Shown piece after piece: positions 1,105 through 10,978 of a DNA stretch of 42,892 nucleotides; positions within the stretch are counted from its first letter, which is position 1, and the number at the start of each line of letters is the position of its first letter. A model generated the notes under the pieces. It was not told the origin of the DNA. It made no database searches and worked only from the letters and a program-made list of their open reading frames with translations. A program made the translations under genes and the position numbers. Source of the stretch: Asterionella formosa (taxonomy: Eukaryota); the NCBI GenBank assembly GCA_002256025.1, contig NKIB01014504.1, positions 1 through 42,892 on the forward strand, read 5' to 3'.

Positions 1105-4100
1105 ATGGCACCTAAACAGATTTTTCCTCGAAAGCAGTTTGCTTATGATGAAATTCCATCGACCCCTGCGACGGAGCCACCACTCCCCTTTTCGAATGCT
1201 GCCAAGAATCATATTCCCAACCCGTACATGAATACAAATATTACCCACGAGCAGATTGCTGCCATTCGGGCAAAGGCAACCATTCAGGGCCAAACTATGG
1301 ACTATCCACAACCTGCAGAACTGTACCCCTCCGAGTTTCCTTATTTTGTTCGCGGCCGTGATTCACTCCGGCAGTACATCACGTCATTATTTACTTCTCA
1401 GATTGCCATGTATGATGGAGCTATGGGTACCATGATCCAGAATTATGCCAAGAGAAACACGCTAGGTGAAGAAGAGTTCCGCGGCGAGCGCTTCAAGGAC
1501 TGGACCTGTCCCGTAAAGGGAAACAATGATATGTTGTCAATTAGTCAGCCTCACATCATCCAAGGAATTTACCGTCAGTACTTGGAGGCTGGTTCGCACA
1601 TGATTGGCACCAACACGTTCTCGTCAACTACGATCGCTATGGCAGATTACGAGATGGAGGCATATGCTTACGAGCTCAATTATGCTGCTGCTAAATTGGC
1701 AAGGTAAGGGCTGTTACCCTGTCTCGCCGCGCTCCTCCCCCGTACAATGCAATGCAATACAATTCAATTGATTGATTGTGAACATGCTGCTGTTTGAGTT
1801 GTTAGTTGTTTTTGTCAATGTATGATTGATTGTGAACATGCTGTTGTTTGAGTTGTTAGTTGCTTTTGTCAATGTATGATTCCATTTGTAGTGTCTGACA
1901 AGATATTTTTCTCACCTTCTCCTTGATTGAAATGTCCCTTGTTGCAATTTTTTTTCAAATAATCCGTACTTCAACATTCATCATTACAGAGAGGTTTGTG
2001 ACGAGATAACCGCACTTGACCCCACAAAGCCCCGATTCGTTGTTGGCGCTCTCGGACCAACCAACCGTACCGGAAGTATCAGTCCAAGTGTAGAGGACCC
2101 TTCAGCTCGCAACGTGACATTTGACGAGCTTGTTGCCACCTACCTGGAACAGGTTGTTGGTCTCGTGGACGGAGGATGTGACATTTTGATGGTGGAAACA
2201 ATTTTCGATACTTTGAATGCGAAGGCAGCCTTATTTGCTATCGGGGAGTATCTTGAGTTTAGCGGTCTGGACATTCCAGTGTTTATCTCCGGCACCCTTG
2301 TAGACCAATCTGGTCGTACCTTGTCAGGTCAGACCGGCGAGGCATTCTATGCGTCAGTGAGACACGCCAAACCCATGTGTGTTGGTGAGTGCCATGGTCC
2401 CTTGTTTCGTGCCTTTCATTTTGTGTGTGTGCGTTTGTATGTTTATATTGTTTGAAAGATTGATGCTTTCTAACGTTGTGTATTGCATTTGTTTACCTTG
2501 TTTACTTTCATTCTAGGATTGAATTGTGCTCTTGGAGCCCAACACATGATTCCCTTCGTGGAGCGTCTTTCCAAGGTAGTAGAATGCTTCATGCACGTCT
2601 ACTCGAATGCTGGTCTCCCCAACGCCATGGGTGGCTATGACGAGAGTCCTAGTGATATGGCTGAAAACTACAAATCCTTCTTCGACAATGGTTGGGTGAA
2701 TCTAGTTGGTGGTTGTTGTGGGTCCACCCCACCGCATATCAAAGCTATTTCCGAAGAGGCTGCAAAGTACAAGCCTCGCAAGCTTCCTGATGTCGGCAGG
2801 CCCAAGATGTGGCTTTCTGGACTGGAGGATTTGATTGTCGACGATGTTGTCAATCATTTGGGTATGCCATTCTTGAATGTAGGCGAGCGTTGCAACATCA
2901 GCGGTTCCATCAAGTTCAAGAAGCTGATGATGGCTGGTGACTATGGTGCAGCCATGGATATTGCCAAGAAGCAGGTCGAGGATGGAGCACATGTGATTGA
3001 TATCAACGTGGACGATGGTATGCTTGACGGCCTCGCTGCAATGCAGAAGTTTGTGAAAATTGCTGTTACGGAGCCTGAGATCGCCAAGGTCCCGTTCATG
3101 TTGGACGCTAGCAAATTCGAGATAGTGTTGGCTGGTCTGAAGTGGTGCCAGGGTAAACCAATCGTGAACTCAATTTCATTGAAGGTCGGCGAGGAGCTTT
3201 TCAAACAGCATGCAACGTTGTTGAAGAAGCACGGTGCAGCAGTGGTTGTGATGGCTTTCGACGAAGAGGGCCAAGCTGCAACAGAATCAGAAAAGGTCCG
3301 TATCTGCAAACGCAGTTATGACATCCTCGTCAATGAGGTTGGTTTCCCACCTGAGGACATTGTGTTCGATCCTAACGTGTTGACGATTGGTACTGGTATG
3401 GAGGAACATGCAAACTATGCAGTTGACTTTATCAATGCCACGAAGACGATCAAGGAGCAGTGTCCGTATGTTAAGATTTCAGGAGGTATTTCGAACTTGT
3501 CGTTTGGGTTCCGCGGAGTGACGAAGGTACGCGAGAGTATTCACTCCGTGTTCCTTCAACACGCGATTCTCGAGTCTGGTATGGATGTCGGTATTGTGAA
3601 CCCCCATGAAATGATAGCGTTTGATGACATGGAAGAAGATATGAAGGTTCTGTGTGAGAATCTTGTATTCAATAAGAATGAAGATGCCACTGAGGACATG
3701 TTGAATCGAACCAACTATGAACGTGCTTGTGTAGAGGCCAAAAAGAAGGGACAAGAGCCACCAAGAAAGCCACGGGGCAAGCCGATCGTTCGACCTCGTC
3801 TTAAATTCGATTATGATTACGTTGAACCAACGGCTGCCACGGAGCCACCACTCCCCTTTTCGAATGCTGCCAAGAATCATATTCCCAACCCGTACATGAA
3901 TACAAATATTACCCACGAGCAGATTGCTGCCATTCGGGCAAAGGCAACCATTCAGGGCCAAACTATGGACTATCCACAACCTGCAGAACTGTACCCCTCC
4001 GAGTTTCCTTATTTTGTTCGCGGCCGTGATTCACTCCGGCAGTACATCACGTCATTATTTACTTCTCAGATTGCCATGTATGATGGAGCTATGGGTACCA

Positions 4101-7100
4101 TGATCCAGAATTATGCCAAGAGAAACACGCTAGGTGAAGAAGAGTTCCGCGGCGAGCGCTTCAAGGACTGGACCTGTCCCGTAAAGGGAAACAATGATAT
4201 GTTGTCAATTAGTCAGCCTCACATCATCCAAGGAATTTACCGTCAGTACTTGGAGGCTGGTTCGCACATGATTGGCACCAACACGTTCTCGTCAACTACG
4301 ATCGCTATGGCAGATTACGAGATGGAGGCATATGCTTACGAGCTCAATTATGCTGCTGCTAAATTGGCAAGGTAAGGGCTGTTACCCTGTCTCGCCGCGC
4401 TCCTCCCCCGTACAATGCAATGCAATACAATTCAATTGATTGATTGTGAACATGCTGTTGTTTGAGTTGTTAGTTGTTTTTGTCAATGTATGATTGATTG
4501 TGAACATGCTGTTGTTTGAGTTGTTAGTTGCTTTTGTCAATGTATGATTCCATTTGTAGTGCCTGACAAGATATTTTTCTCACCTTCTCCTTGATTGAAA
4601 TGTCCCTTGTTGCAATTTTTTTTCAAATAATCCGTACTTCAACATTCATCATTACAGAGAGGTTTGTGACGAGATAACCGCACTTGACCCCACAAAGCCC
4701 CGATTCGTTGTTGGCGCTCTCGGACCAACCAACCGTACCGGAAGTATCAGTCCAAGTGTAGAGGACCCTTCAGCTCGCAACGTGACATTTGACGAGCTTG
4801 TTGCCACCTACCTGGAACAGGTTGTTGGTCTCGTGGACGGAGGATGTGACATTTTGATGGTGGAAACAATTTTCGATACTTTGAATGCGAAGGCAGCCTT
4901 ATTTGCTATCGGGGAGTATCTTGAGTTTAGCGGTCTGGACATTCCAGTGTTTATCTCCGGCACCCTTGTAGACCAATCTGGTCGTACCTTGTCAGGTCAG
5001 ACCGGCGAGGCATTCTATGCGTCAGTGAGACACGCCAAACCCATGTGTGTTGGTGAGTGCCATGGTCCCTTGTTTCGTGCCTTTCATTTTGTGTGTGTGC
5101 GTTTGTATGTTTATATTGTTTGAAAGATTGATGCTTTCTAACGTTGTGTATTGCATTTGTTTACCTTGTTTACTTTCATTCTAGGATTGAATTGTGCTCT
5201 TGGAGCCCAACACATGATTCCCTTCGTGGAGCGTCTTTCCAAGGTAGTAGAATGCTTCATGCACGTCTACTCGAATGCTGGTCTCCCCAACGCCATGGGT
5301 GGCTATGACGAGAGTCCTAGTGATATGGCTGAAAACTACAAATCCTTCTTCGACAATGGTTGGGTGAATCTAGTTGGTGGTTGTTGTGGGTCCACCCCAC
5401 CGCATATCAAAGCTATTTCCGAAGAGGCTGCAAAGTACAAGCCTCGCAAGCTTCCTGATGTCGGCAGGCCCAAGATGTGGCTTTCTGGACTGGAGGATTT
5501 GATTGTCGACGATGTTGTCAATCATTTGGGTATGCCATTCTTGAATGTAGGCGAGCGTTGCAACATCAGCGGTTCCATCAAGTTCAAGAAGCTGATGATG
5601 GCTGGTGACTATGGTGCAGCCATGGATATTGCCAAGAAGCAGGTCGAGGATGGAGCACATGTGATCGATATCAACGTGGACGATGGTATGCTTGACGGCC
5701 TCGCTGCAATGCAGAAGTTTGTGAAAATTGCTGTTACGGAGCCTGAGATCGCCAAGGTCCCGTTCATGTTGGACGCTAGCAAATTCGAGATAGTGTTGGC
5801 TGGTCTGAAGTGGTGCCAGGGTAAACCAATCGTGAACTCAATTTCATTGAAGGTCGGCGAGGAGCTTTTCAAACAGCATGCAACGTTGTTGAAGAAGCAC
5901 GGTGCAGCAGTGGTTGTGATGGCTTTCGACGAAGAGGGCCAAGCTGCAACAGAATCAGAAAAGGTCCGTATCTGCAAACGCAGTTATGACATCCTCGTCA
6001 ATGAGGTTGGTTTCCCACCTGAGGACATTGTGTTCGATCCTAACGTGTTGACGATTGGTACTGGTATGGAGGAACATGCAAACTATGCAGTTGACTTTAT
6101 CAATGCCACGAAGACGATCAAGGAGCAGTGTCCGTATGTTAAGATTTCAGGAGGTATTTCGAACTTGTCGTTTGGGTTCCGCGGAGTGACGAAGGTACGC
6201 GAGAGTATTCACTCCGTGTTCCTTCAACACGCGATTCTCGAGTCTGGTATGGATGTCGGTATTGTGAACCCCAGTGAAATGCTTGCCATTGAAGAAGTTG
6301 AACCTGCCATGCTCAAGGCTGCTGAAGATCTAGTATTCAATCGGACAGAAGAGGCAACAGAGATCATGCTTAATTTAACAACAAGGGAAAAGGAATTGAT
6401 CGAGCTTCGTAAAAAGGGTGGAGGTGGGGAGAAAATAAAGGAGGCATCTTGGCGTGATCTTGAATGCAGGAAACGTCTCGAACATGCTCTGATCAACGGA
6501 ATCTCTGAATATGTCGACGCAGATGTCGAGGAAGCCCGTCAATTTTGTGACAAGCCTCTCGATGTCATTGAGGGACCCCTTATGGACGGGATGAATACTG
6601 TAGGGGATCTCTTTGGCTCTGGTAAAATGTTTTTGCCACAAGTCATCAAGTCGGCACGAGTGATGAAGAAGGCTGTTGCATATCTTTTGCCATTTATGGA
6701 CGAAGAAAAGCGTCAAAATATGATCGCCGAGGGTCTTGACCCTGCTACATTCGACGAAAACGATGATTCCAATTATGCCGGAAAGGTTCTAATGGCGACG
6801 GTGAAGGGCGATGTCCACGATATCGGGAAAAACATTGTTGCTGTTGTACTTGGATGCAATAACTACAAGGTGTATGATATCGGTGTCATGTGCTCTTGTG
6901 AAAAGATCCTTGAGGCCGCGAAGCAATATAATGTGGACGTCATTGGCTTATCCGGATTGATCACTCCTTCCCTTGATGAGATGGTTGATGTCGCCAAACA
7001 AATGTCCAAATCTGGCTTCACTGTTCCACTATTGATTGGAGGTGCAACCACCTCCAAGATGCACACCGCTGTTAAGATTGCGCCTAACTACTTTAGCCTG

Positions 7101-8258
7101 GATCATCCTGTCATCCACGTCCTTGATGCTTCTAGATCCGTTACTGTTGTTTCTTCTCTTCTCGGCGAGAACAAGACTGAGTTCACAAGTGATATCCTGG
7201 AAGAGTACAACGAGATGCGCGAAGACTACTATGCTGGTCTGGAGGATCGCTACTTTCTCACGTTCGCTCAAGCCAAGGCTGCCAAGCTTAACATTGACTT
7301 CGACGCAGTTCCCCCGGCACCGGCGCCAAAATGCTTGGGCGTTACTACGATTGATTCTGTAAAGATTGCTGACATTGTTTCGTACATTGATTGGAATCCT
7401 TTTTTTCAAACTTGGGAGCTCCGTGGTCGCTATCCCAACCGTGGCTACCCCAAGATTTTTGACGATGCAGCCGTTGGTGTGGAAGCCAAGAAGCTCTTCG
7501 ATGATGCTCAGTCCATGATGCACCAGATCATTGCCGATGGAAGCATGACACTCAAGGGTGTGTGTGGCATCTTCCCCGCAAATAGAAGTGCCGACGGAGA
7601 AGACGTTGATATTTTCGAAACTGAAGAAGCGAGAGAGGCTGGTACCCCTCTTTCCACATATTGCATGCTAAGACAACAAGCAGAGAAGGAGAGCGAAGAC
7701 CCATTTTTGAGTCAGGCCGACTTTATTGCCCCAGCTGGCTACAAGGACCACTTGGGTATGTTTGCAGTTTCATGTTTTGGATGTGATGGTTTGGTTGCCA
7801 AGTACGAAAGCGAAAATGACGATTACTCCAAGATTATGGCTCAGGCTTTGGCCGATCGCTTTGTTGAGGCATTTGCTGAATACTTACACAGACAGATTCG
7901 TACCGACATGTGGGGATATGCCCCCGATGAGAATTTGAACGAAGCTGATTTGCTTAAGATCAAGTATGATGGTATCCGCCCTGCTCCTGGCTACCCTTCA
8001 CAGCCAGACCATACCGAAAAGACCACAATGTGGGAGCTAACCCGTGCCAAGGAATTGGCAGGCATGGAATTGAGTGAATCTCTTAGCATGCTTCCCGCAT
8101 CGTCAGTGTCTGCCCTTGTCTTTGCTCACCCCCAATCTCAATACTTTGCTGTCGGTCAGATTGGCAAGGACCAAGTGGAAAGTTATGCCGAGCGCAAGAA
8201 GATGGAAGTAAGTGTTGTTGAACGTTGGTTGTCGCCTATTCTAAACTACGAACGTTAG
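1105..8258 (+). CDS. METH: Cobalamin-dependent methionine synthase with tandemly duplicated Hcy-binding + folate(pterin)-binding modules (5 exons, ~2105 aa)
   Basis: Exons 1105-1703, 1990-2384, 2517-4371, 4658-5052, 5185-8258 are joined by GT-AG introns (1704-1989, 2385-2516, 4372-4657, 5053-5184). Total 6318 nt, open throughout. Splicing restores [18 protein letters not shown] and CV|GLNC. Motifs present twice: [31 protein letters not shown] and GGCCG (Zn ligands), [21 protein letters not shown]. Motifs present once: cap domain ([23 protein letters not shown]), B12 motif [17 protein letters not shown], AdoMet domain RPAPGYP. Confidence 0.95.
1171..3604 (+). repeat. Copy 1 of 2434-bp intragenic direct repeat in METH
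   Basis: Matches 3839-6272 at a constant offset of 2668 bp, including both introns. Differences seen by eye: 1790 C/4458 T, 1894 T/4562 C (both intronic) and 2998 T/5666 C (synonymous Ile). Confidence 0.97.
1771..1881 (+). repeat. 54-bp tandem duplication inside METH intron 1 (repeated in intron 3, ~4439-4549)
   Basis: ATTGATTGTGAACATGCTGYTGTTTGAGTTGTTAGTTGYTTTTGTCAATGTATG starts at 1771 and again at 1825. Confidence 0.9.
3839..6272 (+). repeat. Copy 2 of 2434-bp intragenic direct repeat in METH
   Basis: Begins ACGGAGCCACC and ends GTGAACCCC, as does 1171-3604. Confidence 0.97.
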
Positions 8259-9517: not shown

Positions 9518-10978
9518 ATGATGGCGACGATGAGTATTCATAATGCTGATGATACTTTGCTCGGTCCTCTCAATGATAGCTTCAAGTTCTTCATCGCCAA
9601 TTTAGCGTCGCATATGACAGCGCCAGATATCAAAGCGTTCTTTAGCGTAAGCGCTGCAAATGTTTTTGTCATTGTCGATTCATGCTGATTATTTTGTTTC
9701 TCATTCCTAGTATTCCAATTCCTAAACATTATTCCTATTCTACCATTCCTATACATACTATTATTCCATTTTTATTATAATCAGTCCTTCGGAGTGGTCA
9801 ACTTTGTCAAGCTCATCTATGAAACGAACAACAAGGGCGGAGAGAAAAAATCCAAGGGGTATGGGTTCGTGTACATGTATGATGCTGCAGGGGACGCAGC
9901 TGTTCAGAACTATTTGGACTACCATCAGAATCGAATAGAACTGTTGGGCCAATCTCGAGTTTTTATGAATCGACATGATTCAGCACGAGAAATGCCTTTG
10001 AGGCACAAGCGTTCCCGGGATGTGGCAGTTGCCAGCGTCCCAGCGGGACCTAATCACTTTGGGCAGCAACTGTATAGTAGTAGCCAAGGATCCTATCCAC
10101 AGCCAATGCCTCCTCTAGAATATGCTACTCCATATTCTCAAATCAGTCCAGGGTATTATCCCTCCTATCCACAGCAGCAACCGAATGGTACACCACAGCA
10201 AGGGTATCCTCAAAGCAACCATCAGCAAGGGTATTCTCAAAGCAGCCATCAGCAAGGGTATCCTCAAAGCAGCCATCAGCAGCCCTATTTTGATCAACCA
10301 CCAACACAATATGGAGGAGGTTACAATAACCACAACAACAATGGCTTTCCCGAAACTTACCAACCGACCAACCAATACTCGTGGGCGATGAACCATATTG
10401 GCCATTTCCAAGGCGGAGGGAATGATCCTTCCTATTCGCTACCCCACCACCATCACCACCCCTCAAATGATCCATACATTCGGGAGCCACCAAATAATAT
10501 GAACCATTACCCACACACAAATCAGGTTCATCAAGATCACAACTACAATAGAATATCACAACCATCATCATACAGTAATAAGCAGCCAGTTCAGAATAAA
10601 GACAATGAGAACTACGAGACGCAAAGACCAGCAAGACCATACAATGATGCCACTACAAAGGTATTTCTTGAAAATCTTCCCGAGGACGTTACTCCCAAGA
10701 CTGTAACAGAATGTCTGAAAGCACACCATTTGATTGCCAAGAGATGTACAATGGAGTACAATGCGCAAGACAACACTTCCTCTGCTCGGGTGGAATTGAA
10801 TAGCCCTCAAGATGCCAGCAAATGTTGTATGCTGGCTAAAAATAAGGAACTGAACTGTGGGGGACGAACATTGAAGGCATCGCTAGACCGACCACCAAGA
10901 CCCAACCACAACAAAAGTCGGGGTGGTGGCAGAAATCATGGGCCTCGGCGGGAAGGTCGTCGGGATCGGCCCTATTGA
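9518..10978 (+). CDS. Two-RRM RNA-binding protein with Q/N/Y/P/H-rich low-complexity linker and Arg/Gly-rich tail
   Basis: Exon 1 9518-9646, intron 9647-9784 (GTAAGC..TCAG), exon 2 9785-10978. Splicing joins RNP2-like KFFIANL to RNP1 KGYGFVYM. A second, degenerate RRM begins KVFLENLPEDVT. The choice of start ATG is uncertain. Confidence 0.88.
10196..10282 (+). repeat. 27-bp coding tandem repeat (QQGYPQSSH-like x3)
   Basis: CAGCAAGGGTATYCTCAAAGCARCCAT occurs three times in tandem. Confidence 0.88.

Follow-up and report, generated by a model that had tools for sequence, protein, structure and literature searches.

An expressed diatom methionine synthase with two identical homocysteine and folate modules ahead of a single cobalamin arm

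The METH gene of the diatom Asterionella formosa, at positions 1105-8258 on the forward strand of the window (the whole 42,892-nt stretch of DNA that was analysed), encodes a cobalamin-dependent methionine synthase with a variant architecture. Two identical modules, each with a homocysteine (Hcy) barrel and a folate barrel, precede one arm made up of a Cap, a cobalamin-binding (Cob) and an activation domain. The analysis confirmed that this two-headed architecture is real, transcribed and spliced. Judging from the sequence, each of the two heads would probably act as a docking station for the one B12 domain.

The gene has five exons (1105-1703, 1990-2384, 2517-4371, 4658-5052 and 5185-8258, stop included) separated by GT-AG introns, two of which lie in Hcy barrel 1 (1704-1989 and 2385-2516) and two in Hcy barrel 2 (4372-4657 and 5053-5184). 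When the exons were joined by script they gave a 6318-nt coding sequence and a 2105-aa product, in which the sole stop was the terminal one. The product runs through N-extension, Hcy barrel and folate barrel twice before it reaches its only Cap, cobalamin and activation domains.

Pfam searches with the exon translations returned S-methyl_trans, Pterin_bind, B12-binding_2, B12-binding and Met_synt_B12, all of which exceeded their curated cut-offs. Head 1 starts with an N-terminal extension of about 100 aa (1105-1410, part of the duplicated unit from 1126 onward) ahead of the Hcy (zinc) barrel (1411-2758; PF02574 on exon translations P0003 and P0001), and continues into the folate (pterin-binding) barrel (2882-3601). 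Head 2 has its Hcy (zinc) barrel at 4079-5426, also detected with Pfam, and its folate (pterin-binding) barrel at 5550-6269 (PF00809 on exon translation P0002, residues 122-361). Both heads match PF00809 from end to end (1-244 of 244), with E values of 2e-51 for head 1 and 1e-51 for head 2. When the spliced protein was scanned for motifs, the Hcy start was located at residues 104 and 854, the GLNC-type zinc motif at residues 332 and 1082, the GGCCG motif at residues 396 and 1146, the folate motif at residues 549 and 1299 and the end of the folate barrel at residues 689 and 1439. The GLNC-type and GGCCG motifs, which we take to hold the three cysteine zinc ligands, are therefore present in both heads, and PF02574 passes its cut-off. 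Past the terminal (canonical) folate-to-Cap linker (6273-6470), every domain is single: the Cap (6471-6686; PF02607), the cobalamin-binding Rossmann domain (6780-7064; PF02310) and the AdoMet-dependent activation domain (7365-8201; PF02965, E 3e-109, positions 2-273 of 273), all on the forward strand like the rest of the gene. The scan likewise gave a single Cap motif (residue 1545), a single Cob motif (residue 1624) and a single activation motif (residue 2013). The lone DVHDIGKN at residue 1624 is presumably the DxHxxG (His-on) motif. Instead of the canonical one copy per module, the protein thus carries two Hcy and two folate barrels, and its Cap, Cob and activation domains occur once each.

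These results agree with most of what the original prediction had read from the DNA letters. It had proposed an open protein of about 2105 aa with the order [ext-Hcy-Fol]-[ext-Hcy-Fol]-Cap-Cob-AdoMet, which the spliced coding sequence, Pfam and the motif scan all bear out, and it had claimed that both Hcy barrels keep the zinc-ligand motifs (GLNC and GGCCG) and that both folate barrels are complete, as the scan and the full-length PF00809 matches, respectively, show them to be. The contrast that it drew with single-headed enzymes also stands, in that all solved methionine synthases matched by the window protein are single-headed (for example human MTR, 1265 aa).

The two heads form a repeat with a period of 2668 nt. 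Its homogenised core, which takes in exons and both introns, lies at 1171-3604 (copy 1) and 3839-6272 (copy 2), and the copies are the same at 2431 of 2434 nt. The only three differences are found at 1790 and 1894, which are intronic, and at 2998, which is synonymous (ATT/ATC), and the protein modules of heads 1 and 2 of the window are 100% identical. The flanks of this core are homologous but diverged, with identities of 53-60% (87/165 nt on the 3' side and 27/45 nt on the 5' side), and further out the identity falls to the random level (15/69 and 31/126), a pattern that excludes chance. Between the two cores lies a unique inter-module linker of 234 nt (3605-3838), seen in contigs from independent runs of both RNA and DNA. 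The first ~165 nt of the linker repeat the folate-to-Cap linker in diverged form, and these are followed by a basic, Pro-rich junction and then by a diverged start of the N-extension. The internal and terminal post-folate segments of the window protein are 46.7% identical.

The segment between the heads measures about 165 aa from the end of the folate barrel to the following Hcy start, and neither it nor the N-extension of about 100 aa had a match among solved structures or in Pfam. An AlphaFold model of a homologue (P0098), which takes in head 1, the linker and some of head 2 and gives the relative placement neither of two complete heads nor of the B12 domain, has a mean pLDDT of 81, with low confidence confined to residues ~750-770. 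In this model the equivalent of the N-extension is predicted to be ordered (pLDDT 84-95), and two linker helices are present.

The stretch 3300-4100, which contains the linker, was present in 20 public runs from 14 studies, and eight of these runs are recorded as RNA. One polyA RNA contig covers 3575-3868 with zero differences, a second RNA contig runs from 3575 to 4369 and is then spliced to 4656, and a DNA contig (3597-4495) keeps the intron. Both introns are absent, having been spliced out, in contigs from three RNA runs, that at 4372-4657 among them. The contigs of one RNA run break exactly at 2998, the sole exonic difference between the copies. Transcripts that cross 3605-3838, whose absence had been named as evidence against the two-headed gene, therefore exist, and their introns have been removed. 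All of these contigs are short-read unitigs, which join the linker to a copy on each side rather than following one molecule through both whole copies, and they fall short of proving exactly two copies on one molecule. In one RNA run the depth was 217 over the linker and 90 over the repeat, though such depths are not convertible to copy number or isoform ratio.

The homologue search (n=120) used a query that spans the junction and favoured proteins of 1081-3085 aa. In this set, biased as it is toward long forms, motifs of two or three Hcy and folate modules were found in 116 of the 120 proteins, and more than one Cap or Cob motif was found in none. Two or three heads occur in diatoms, labyrinthulomycetes and pelagophytes and three heads in green algae and dinoflagellates, and across species the homologues are 41-83% identical to the window protein. 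The multi-headed layout is shared by Hondaea and Mucochytrium (named as in the source), which we take to be labyrinthulomycetes and heterotrophs. Many diatom models of ~1360 aa look single-headed, as do the models of the stramenopiles Nannochloropsis and Fibrocapsa (~1280 aa); either the extra heads are dispensable or the assemblies have collapsed. Several database models start inside the linker or omit a module. When a representative library was searched with the junction-bearing exon, the best 150 matches consisted almost entirely of fragments and of canonical proteins 1150-1290 aa long. The only two long proteins among them were set aside as a different paralogue, which lacks the Cap, Cob and activation domains.

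Heads within one protein were 80-100% identical, mostly 99-100% (58 proteins), with the qualification that many of the 100% values come from short-read or transcript assemblies in which the repeat unitig was possibly traversed twice, which overstates identity. In named genome entries the values were 99.3% for Nitzschia inconspicua, 97.5% for Epithemia, 100% for Hondaea and 97.8-99.5% for Chrysophaeum. The heads of the same protein were monophyletic in 54 of the 58 proteins, and the internal linker type was recognisable in diatoms, in Hondaea and Mucochytrium and in Chrysophaeum. The repeats are therefore more alike within a gene than between species while their boundaries are older, which is the pattern of concerted evolution. 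Taken together, the near-identical core, the diverged flanks and the linker type found across species suggest that the duplication is old and that its core has been kept uniform by gene conversion. The duplication probably dates back at least to the common ancestor of the sampled diatoms, pelagophytes and labyrinthulomycetes, recurrent gene conversion appears to hold the 2.4-kb core near-identical, introns included, and unequal crossing-over between identical copies could alter the number of heads. The original prediction had treated the doubling as a feature of this gene, and on this point it does not hold, since the architecture is old and widespread. Homogenised cores erase the signal that would tell a single origin of the green-algal, dinoflagellate and stramenopile forms from several.

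In the mechanism that we favour, each head would be a competent docking station for the single B12 domain, which would move on the canonical flexible linker. At either folate barrel the B12 domain would accept the methyl group of methyltetrahydrofolate, which it would hand to homocysteine at either zinc barrel, and the heads would be strung like beads on a tether that is short (~20 residues), basic and disordered. With more substrate-loaded sites available to each cofactor the flux per B12 would rise, and oxidation-prone cob(I)alamin in particular would be shorter-lived. The original prediction had similarly supposed that doubled modules could offer each B12 more docking sites, or closer ones, and so raise turnover per cofactor, which would suit algae short of B12. 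Isolated N-terminal MetH fragments supplied with free cobalamin catalyse both methyl transfers, and oxidation of cob(I)alamin occurs about once per 2000 turnovers. Visits of the B12 domain to head 1 are putative.

A broader reading can be built on this mechanism, which we regard as tentative and rather doubtful as a whole. Multi-headed METH would be a recurrent adaptation by which algae and their relatives tune the number of substrate stations per scarce B12. Extra folate barrels would remethylate cob(I)alamin faster, which would cut oxidative inactivation in oxygen-rich cells and raise the methionine flux per cofactor. The number of heads (one, two or three) would be set by unequal crossing-over between repeats kept alike by conversion, and splicing from a copy-1 donor to a copy-2 acceptor could give a one-headed isoform; both introns are duplicated with the module, so that a splice from a copy-1 donor to the matching copy-2 acceptor would stay in frame. 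The architecture would have had separate origins in stramenopiles, in green algae and in dinoflagellates, each time at one and the same permissive point in the folate-to-Cap linker. However, the presence of the same layout in the heterotrophs Hondaea and Mucochytrium counts against a specific B12-scarcity reading, and so do the apparently single-headed Nannochloropsis and Fibrocapsa.

The foremost alternative to the docking mechanism is that the extra head is not catalytic for the B12 domain and serves instead as a folate/homocysteine buffer, a scaffold, a partner-binding unit or a regulator, its motifs persisting mainly through gene conversion from head 2. Because the heads are homogenised with their introns, motif retention is not independent evidence of function, and head 1 could be preserved, with no selection on head 1, by conversion from the essential head 2, which counts against the proposed mechanism. 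The existence of relatives with apparently one head fits this alternative too, as does the state of head 1 in certain homologues. In P0063 the Hcy part of head 1 is 70% identical to that of head 2 and has no zinc motifs, and when the sequences of P0077, P0062 and P0061 were read, the zinc motifs were likewise lost from head 1. By its motifs, then, head 1 has lost its zinc site in some lineages while the folate barrel is intact, so not every lineage needs a second head that is catalytically complete. However, folate barrel 1 of P0063 is still 90% identical, and the decay of Hcy barrel 1 next to a conserved folate barrel 1 suggests that the extra folate site is under the strongest selection. In addition, every scanned zinc and folate motif is kept in all heads of P0097, P0093 and P0100, despite heads that are only 80-88% identical, and the in-frame duplication has been kept over deep lineages although identical 2.4-kb repeats would be expected to be lost readily by unequal crossing-over. 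These three observations were counted as indirect support for a functional extra head, and a non-catalytic head 1 is considered unlikely.

It is also conceivable that the protein is a precursor cut at the conserved basic linker, which would release a free Hcy and folate module and a METH of canonical size. The junction is conserved, strongly basic, Pro-rich and predicted to be disordered, which is the type of sequence accessible to proteases. However, the basic stretch can be read equally well as a flexible tether or a targeting signal, and the linkers of green algae and dinoflagellates have no basic motif and their proteins have three heads nonetheless, which makes cleavage highly improbable. 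An assembly artefact or a very recent, private duplication of no biological meaning is less probable still, for although 99.9% identity between copies, introns included, has the look of a recent event or a mis-assembled repeat, the junction is unique, in frame and homologous in diverged form to both ends of the unit, recurs in independent studies and spliced RNA, and is conserved in type in other species and genera.

The multi-headed architecture matters for several reasons. MetH is the textbook case of one cofactor that shuttles between distant sites, and a natural form with two or three modules would let the limiting step of the cycle be asked about directly. It also bears on the thrift of B12-dependent algae with a vitamin thought to be growth-limiting in many waters. 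At the practical level, short-read assemblies collapse or truncate near-identical 2.4-kb repeats, so published METH models and lengths may be wrong, and any transcript or peptide assay directed at the repeated module would score one enzyme molecule as two or three. The gene would also be a clear case of intragenic gene conversion that has gone on for a long time and extends to introns.

No description of the multi-headed layout was found in the main texts of the openly accessible literature searched, and the matching passages of PMC11197592, PMC4523565, PMC11439496 and PMC10861871 describe no repeated Hcy or folate modules in METH. Databases do hold multi-headed METH entries with the layout of the window protein ([Hcy-Fol]xN-Cap-Cob-Act), for example those of Nitzschia inconspicua (2113 aa), Epithemia (2119 aa), Hondaea (2120 aa), Chrysophaeum (2877 aa), Chlamydomonas eustigma (2802 aa) and Polarella (2721 aa), labelled merely 'methionine synthase' or 'hypothetical protein'. 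The stramenopile entries also carry the linker type of the window, and the closest multi-headed entries are only 79-83% identical to the window protein.

Canonical MetH/MTR (E. coli, human and Thermus; PDB 9ssp, 8ssc, 8g3h and 1q7m, among others) has in common with the window protein the five Pfam domains, their order and the zinc, folate, Cob and activation motifs, and its chemistry is presumably alike. It differs in having a single Hcy barrel and a single folate barrel for each cobalamin domain in ~1150-1265 aa, whereas the window protein has two of each, together with the N-extension and the inter-head segment. The B12-free methionine synthase, which belongs to an unrelated fold family, also grew through internal barrel duplication; according to the abstract that describes it, the two barrels lie face to face and are no longer alike, whereas the two-barrel modules of the window METH are in tandem and kept identical. 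Another parallel is offered by corrinoid methyltransferase systems with separate subunits, for example MeTr and its partner, the corrinoid iron-sulfur protein (PDB 2e7f and 4djd, which matched the window folate barrel), where a corrinoid module visits pterin-dependent methyltransferase barrels. Such systems are not restricted to one barrel for each corrinoid carrier. However, MeTr and the corrinoid iron-sulfur protein are separate proteins, whereas the window METH has all of its stations on one polypeptide.

The gene examined here, METH, encodes a cobalamin-dependent methionine synthase and lies at 1105-8258 on the forward strand. Stop-to-stop frames and splice-site sequence divide it into five exons (1105-1703, 1990-2384, 2517-4371, 4658-5052 and 5185-8258), and every intron has GT-AG borders. 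When joined by script these exons give a 6318-nt CDS of 2105 aa whose sole stop is terminal, which corresponds to a product of about 230 kDa as estimated from length. Pfam matched PF02574 (Hcy) and PF00809 (pterin) in exons 1-3 and again in exons 3-5, followed downstream by one each of PF02607, PF02310 and PF02965. A motif scan found two Hcy starts, two zinc motif sets and two folate barrels with a single Cap, a single cobalamin-binding (Cob) and a single activation motif. The original prediction of a double-headed layout with one cobalamin module is borne out by these data, a head being one N-extension, one Hcy barrel and one folate barrel. In all domains and motifs tested METH belongs to the MetH/METH family, but it departs from that family in module stoichiometry, in the N-extension and in the linker between heads, and neither the N-extension nor this linker had a match in Pfam or the PDB. 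Downstream of METH, a long open frame at 9689-10978 (+) carries Gln, Pro and Tyr repeats and a segment that resembles an RNA-recognition motif.

The repeat has a period of 2668 nt, and its two cores (1171-3604 and 3839-6272) are identical at 2431 of 2434 nt with both introns counted. Two of the three differences are intronic and the other is a synonymous ATT/ATC at 2998. On the 3' side of the core, diverged homology (87/165 nt identical) extends to the Lys-Lys-Gly of the terminal linker, the canonical folate-to-Cap linker at 6273-6470, past which identity is at the random level (15/69). The 5' flank matches at 27 of 45 nt before identity falls to the random level (31/126). By these limits the duplicated unit began just past the start codon and extended some 55 codons beyond the folate barrel. 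The 234 nt between the heads (3605-3838), carried by exon 3, are unique and in frame, and this internal linker consists, in forward order, of diverged sequence copied from the folate-to-Cap linker, a basic junction rich in Pro, and a diverged copy of the N-extension start. A junction of this composition is beyond what an assembler could invent. The first intron of each copy also contains a 54-nt tandem repeat (1769-1881 and 4437-4549; 2.1 copies, 96-98% matches), and one of the three copy differences, at 1790, falls inside it.

A search for longer homologues using exon 3 as the query (617 aa, junction-bearing), which favours long forms, listed 120 hits, all of them methionine synthases and the majority with full query coverage. 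Among those listed, at least three folate-barrel motifs were found in 15, two in 101 and one in 4, and no protein of the 120 carried a second Cap or Cob motif. Thirteen of the two-motif models (about 1420-1540 aa) open in the last part of a folate barrel and continue into the internal linker, and judged by sequence they are two-headed genes truncated at the 5' end. Three of the four one-motif records are visibly incomplete or collapsed two-headed genes (P0098 ends within head 2, P0120 keeps the internal linker, and P0123, a fragment of 1112 aa, lacks the activation motif); the remaining one is P0117 (1418 aa). The best-matching named homologues among the listed hits are from diatoms (Nitzschia inconspicua, 81%; Epithemia, 78%). 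Source-named entries with two heads include those of these two, Hondaea, Mucochytrium and Aureococcus, the last with fragmentary models in which three folate motifs are present, and those with three heads include Chrysophaeum, Chlamydomonas eustigma, Dunaliella, Botryococcus, Myrmecia, Trebouxia, Polarella and Prorocentrum. When the C-terminal half served as query in another search, limited to 562-1791 aa, many models of about 1360 aa were recovered, and 15 of the models were inspected by sequence. Five start inside the internal linker or at its basic junction, one comes from a collapsed transcript in which the linker is still present, and six are apparently truly single-headed with a complete N-extension. 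Most of these six derive from transcript assemblies or from contigs between a few kb and 18 kb long, where the repeat may have collapsed. The models from Nannochloropsis and Fibrocapsa appear to have one head and no long N-extension, and the last of the 15 is the Phaeodactylum reference model.

Several other features of these homologues were recorded. The Phaeodactylum tricornutum reference model P0167 (1245 aa) has its N-terminus within the Hcy barrel, and its post-folate linker has the internal-linker signature until the junction point and then passes straight into the last residues of the terminal linker. This gene model or assembly may skip a second module, which may concern users of this model diatom. 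Five three-headed green-algal proteins (P0088, P0093, P0095, P0097 and P0094) have long hydrophobic, transmembrane-like stretches before head 1; stramenopile METH has none. Three proteins of 1243-2076 aa (P0274, P0374 and P0259) have two diverged Hcy+folate modules without zinc motifs, lack the Cap, Cob and activation domains and have a distinct C-terminal region in common; they appear to form a paralogue family of their own, built on MetH N-terminal modules. P0260, a 1582-aa methionine synthase, has an insertion of about 350 aa with a P-loop-like motif between the Cap and B12-binding domain.

Within-protein head identity was 80-100% in 58 proteins (most 99-100%, window 100%), and identity of listed homologues to the window protein was 41-83%. 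Short-read assemblies may pass one repeat unitig twice and so overstate head identity, but named genome entries still show 97.5-100% and the window retains three copy-specific differences. In a tree of 127 heads, those of the same protein were monophyletic in 54 of the 58 proteins, and near-identical entries account for two of the four exceptions. The linkers were compared over the 45 residues following each folate barrel. The internal and terminal segments of the window are 46.7% identical, and the internal one closely matches those of other diatoms and has a signature also found in Hondaea, Mucochytrium and Chrysophaeum. Means between species over 18 stramenopile proteins differ modestly (internal-internal 50.2%, terminal-terminal 49.2%, internal-terminal 43.8%). 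Because heads are alike within proteins while linker types are common across species, we infer one old duplication in stramenopiles with a core under ongoing gene conversion. In four proteins the within-protein segments are 78-91% identical, conversion nearly reaching the junction, and its limit marks the junction position too. Green algae have their own internal-linker types, common to Chlamydomonas, Dunaliella, Botryococcus, Myrmecia and Trebouxia (source-named), with lower identity for head 1 (80-95%) than between heads 2 and 3 (94-99.5%), and the dinoflagellate linker is a further distinct type. The junction falls at nearly the same position within the folate-to-Cap linker in all three groups, which could mean either that the layout arose once or that only one site is permissive.

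Gene conversion makes motif conservation weaker as evidence of function, and head 1 could be non-catalytic and kept intact by conversion, a reading we consider unlikely. The in-frame repeat has been retained in deeply separated lineages despite the ease with which identical repeats can be deleted, and where the heads of a protein are only 80-88% identical each of them still has all scanned motifs. In the homologue P0063, Hcy barrel 1 is 70% identical to barrel 2, has deletions and lacks the zinc motifs, whereas folate barrel 1 is 90% identical to barrel 2 with motifs intact. By reading, P0077 and P0062 and, separately, P0061 have also lost the zinc motifs from a head-1 Hcy barrel with deletions while the folate barrel is intact; these four proteins are natural half-dead heads. 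Decay of the head-1 Hcy barrel alongside an intact folate barrel 1 suggests that the extra folate barrel is the most important element. As read here, the architecture and its evolution are, in our judgement, highly probable. The likeliest reading is that one B12 arm would serve two equivalent stations, with the gain coming mainly from faster cob(I)alamin remethylation at the additional folate site, though the kinetic detail is held with much less confidence. A link of doubled heads to B12 scarcity, as originally suggested, is not specifically supported; Hondaea and Mucochytrium, which we take to be heterotrophs, have the same layout.

An AlphaFold model of the homologue P0098 (1089 aa, 80% identical to the exon-3 query in the best local alignment; 28-sequence alignment) had a mean pLDDT of 81 and a pTM of 0.64. 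The N-extension is predicted to be ordered (pLDDT 84-95), and two helices are predicted in the opening part of the internal linker, as expected of the start of a folate-to-Cap linker. Low confidence is limited to the basic junction, about residues 750-770. From this model, which spans head 1, the linker and part of head 2, the heads are probably joined by a short flexible tether. Processing of the protein at this basic tether seems very improbable.

The region 3300-4100 is present in 20 public runs from 14 studies, one DNA run of which may be the window's own source. Eight are on record as RNA, and the runs that contain this DNA are labelled as freshwater, lake or algae metagenomes; with the diatom homologues, these labels suggest a freshwater diatom as the source. 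Contigs from four runs in four studies were aligned to 2300-4700. Positions 3575-3868 are matched without a single difference by a polyA RNA contig, 3575-4369 by a metatranscriptome contig that then splices to 4656, and 3597-4495 by a DNA contig with the intron kept; transcripts across 3605-3838, called for by the original prediction, were thus found. Contigs of three RNA runs skip the introns 2385-2516 and 4372-4657, and in one RNA run contigs break exactly at 2998, the sole exonic copy difference, as expected if both copies are present. The internal linker is joined to the module on either side, in spliced RNA, in contigs that are short unitigs, shorter than two modules. That the duplication is an artefact or a recent private event is scarcely credible, given a unique in-frame linker with diverged homology seen in independent RNA and DNA runs.

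Public databases already hold multi-headed METH entries under generic names. No description of the layout was found in the searched full text of the literature on algal METH, supplements and subscription journals aside, and one such paper gives dinoflagellate metH "the four known" domains. Multi-headed METH is a variant of MetH/METH whose layout was not found described in these sources. Every solved methionine synthase structure that was matched has one head, whereas Asterionella METH has two heads and one B12 arm.
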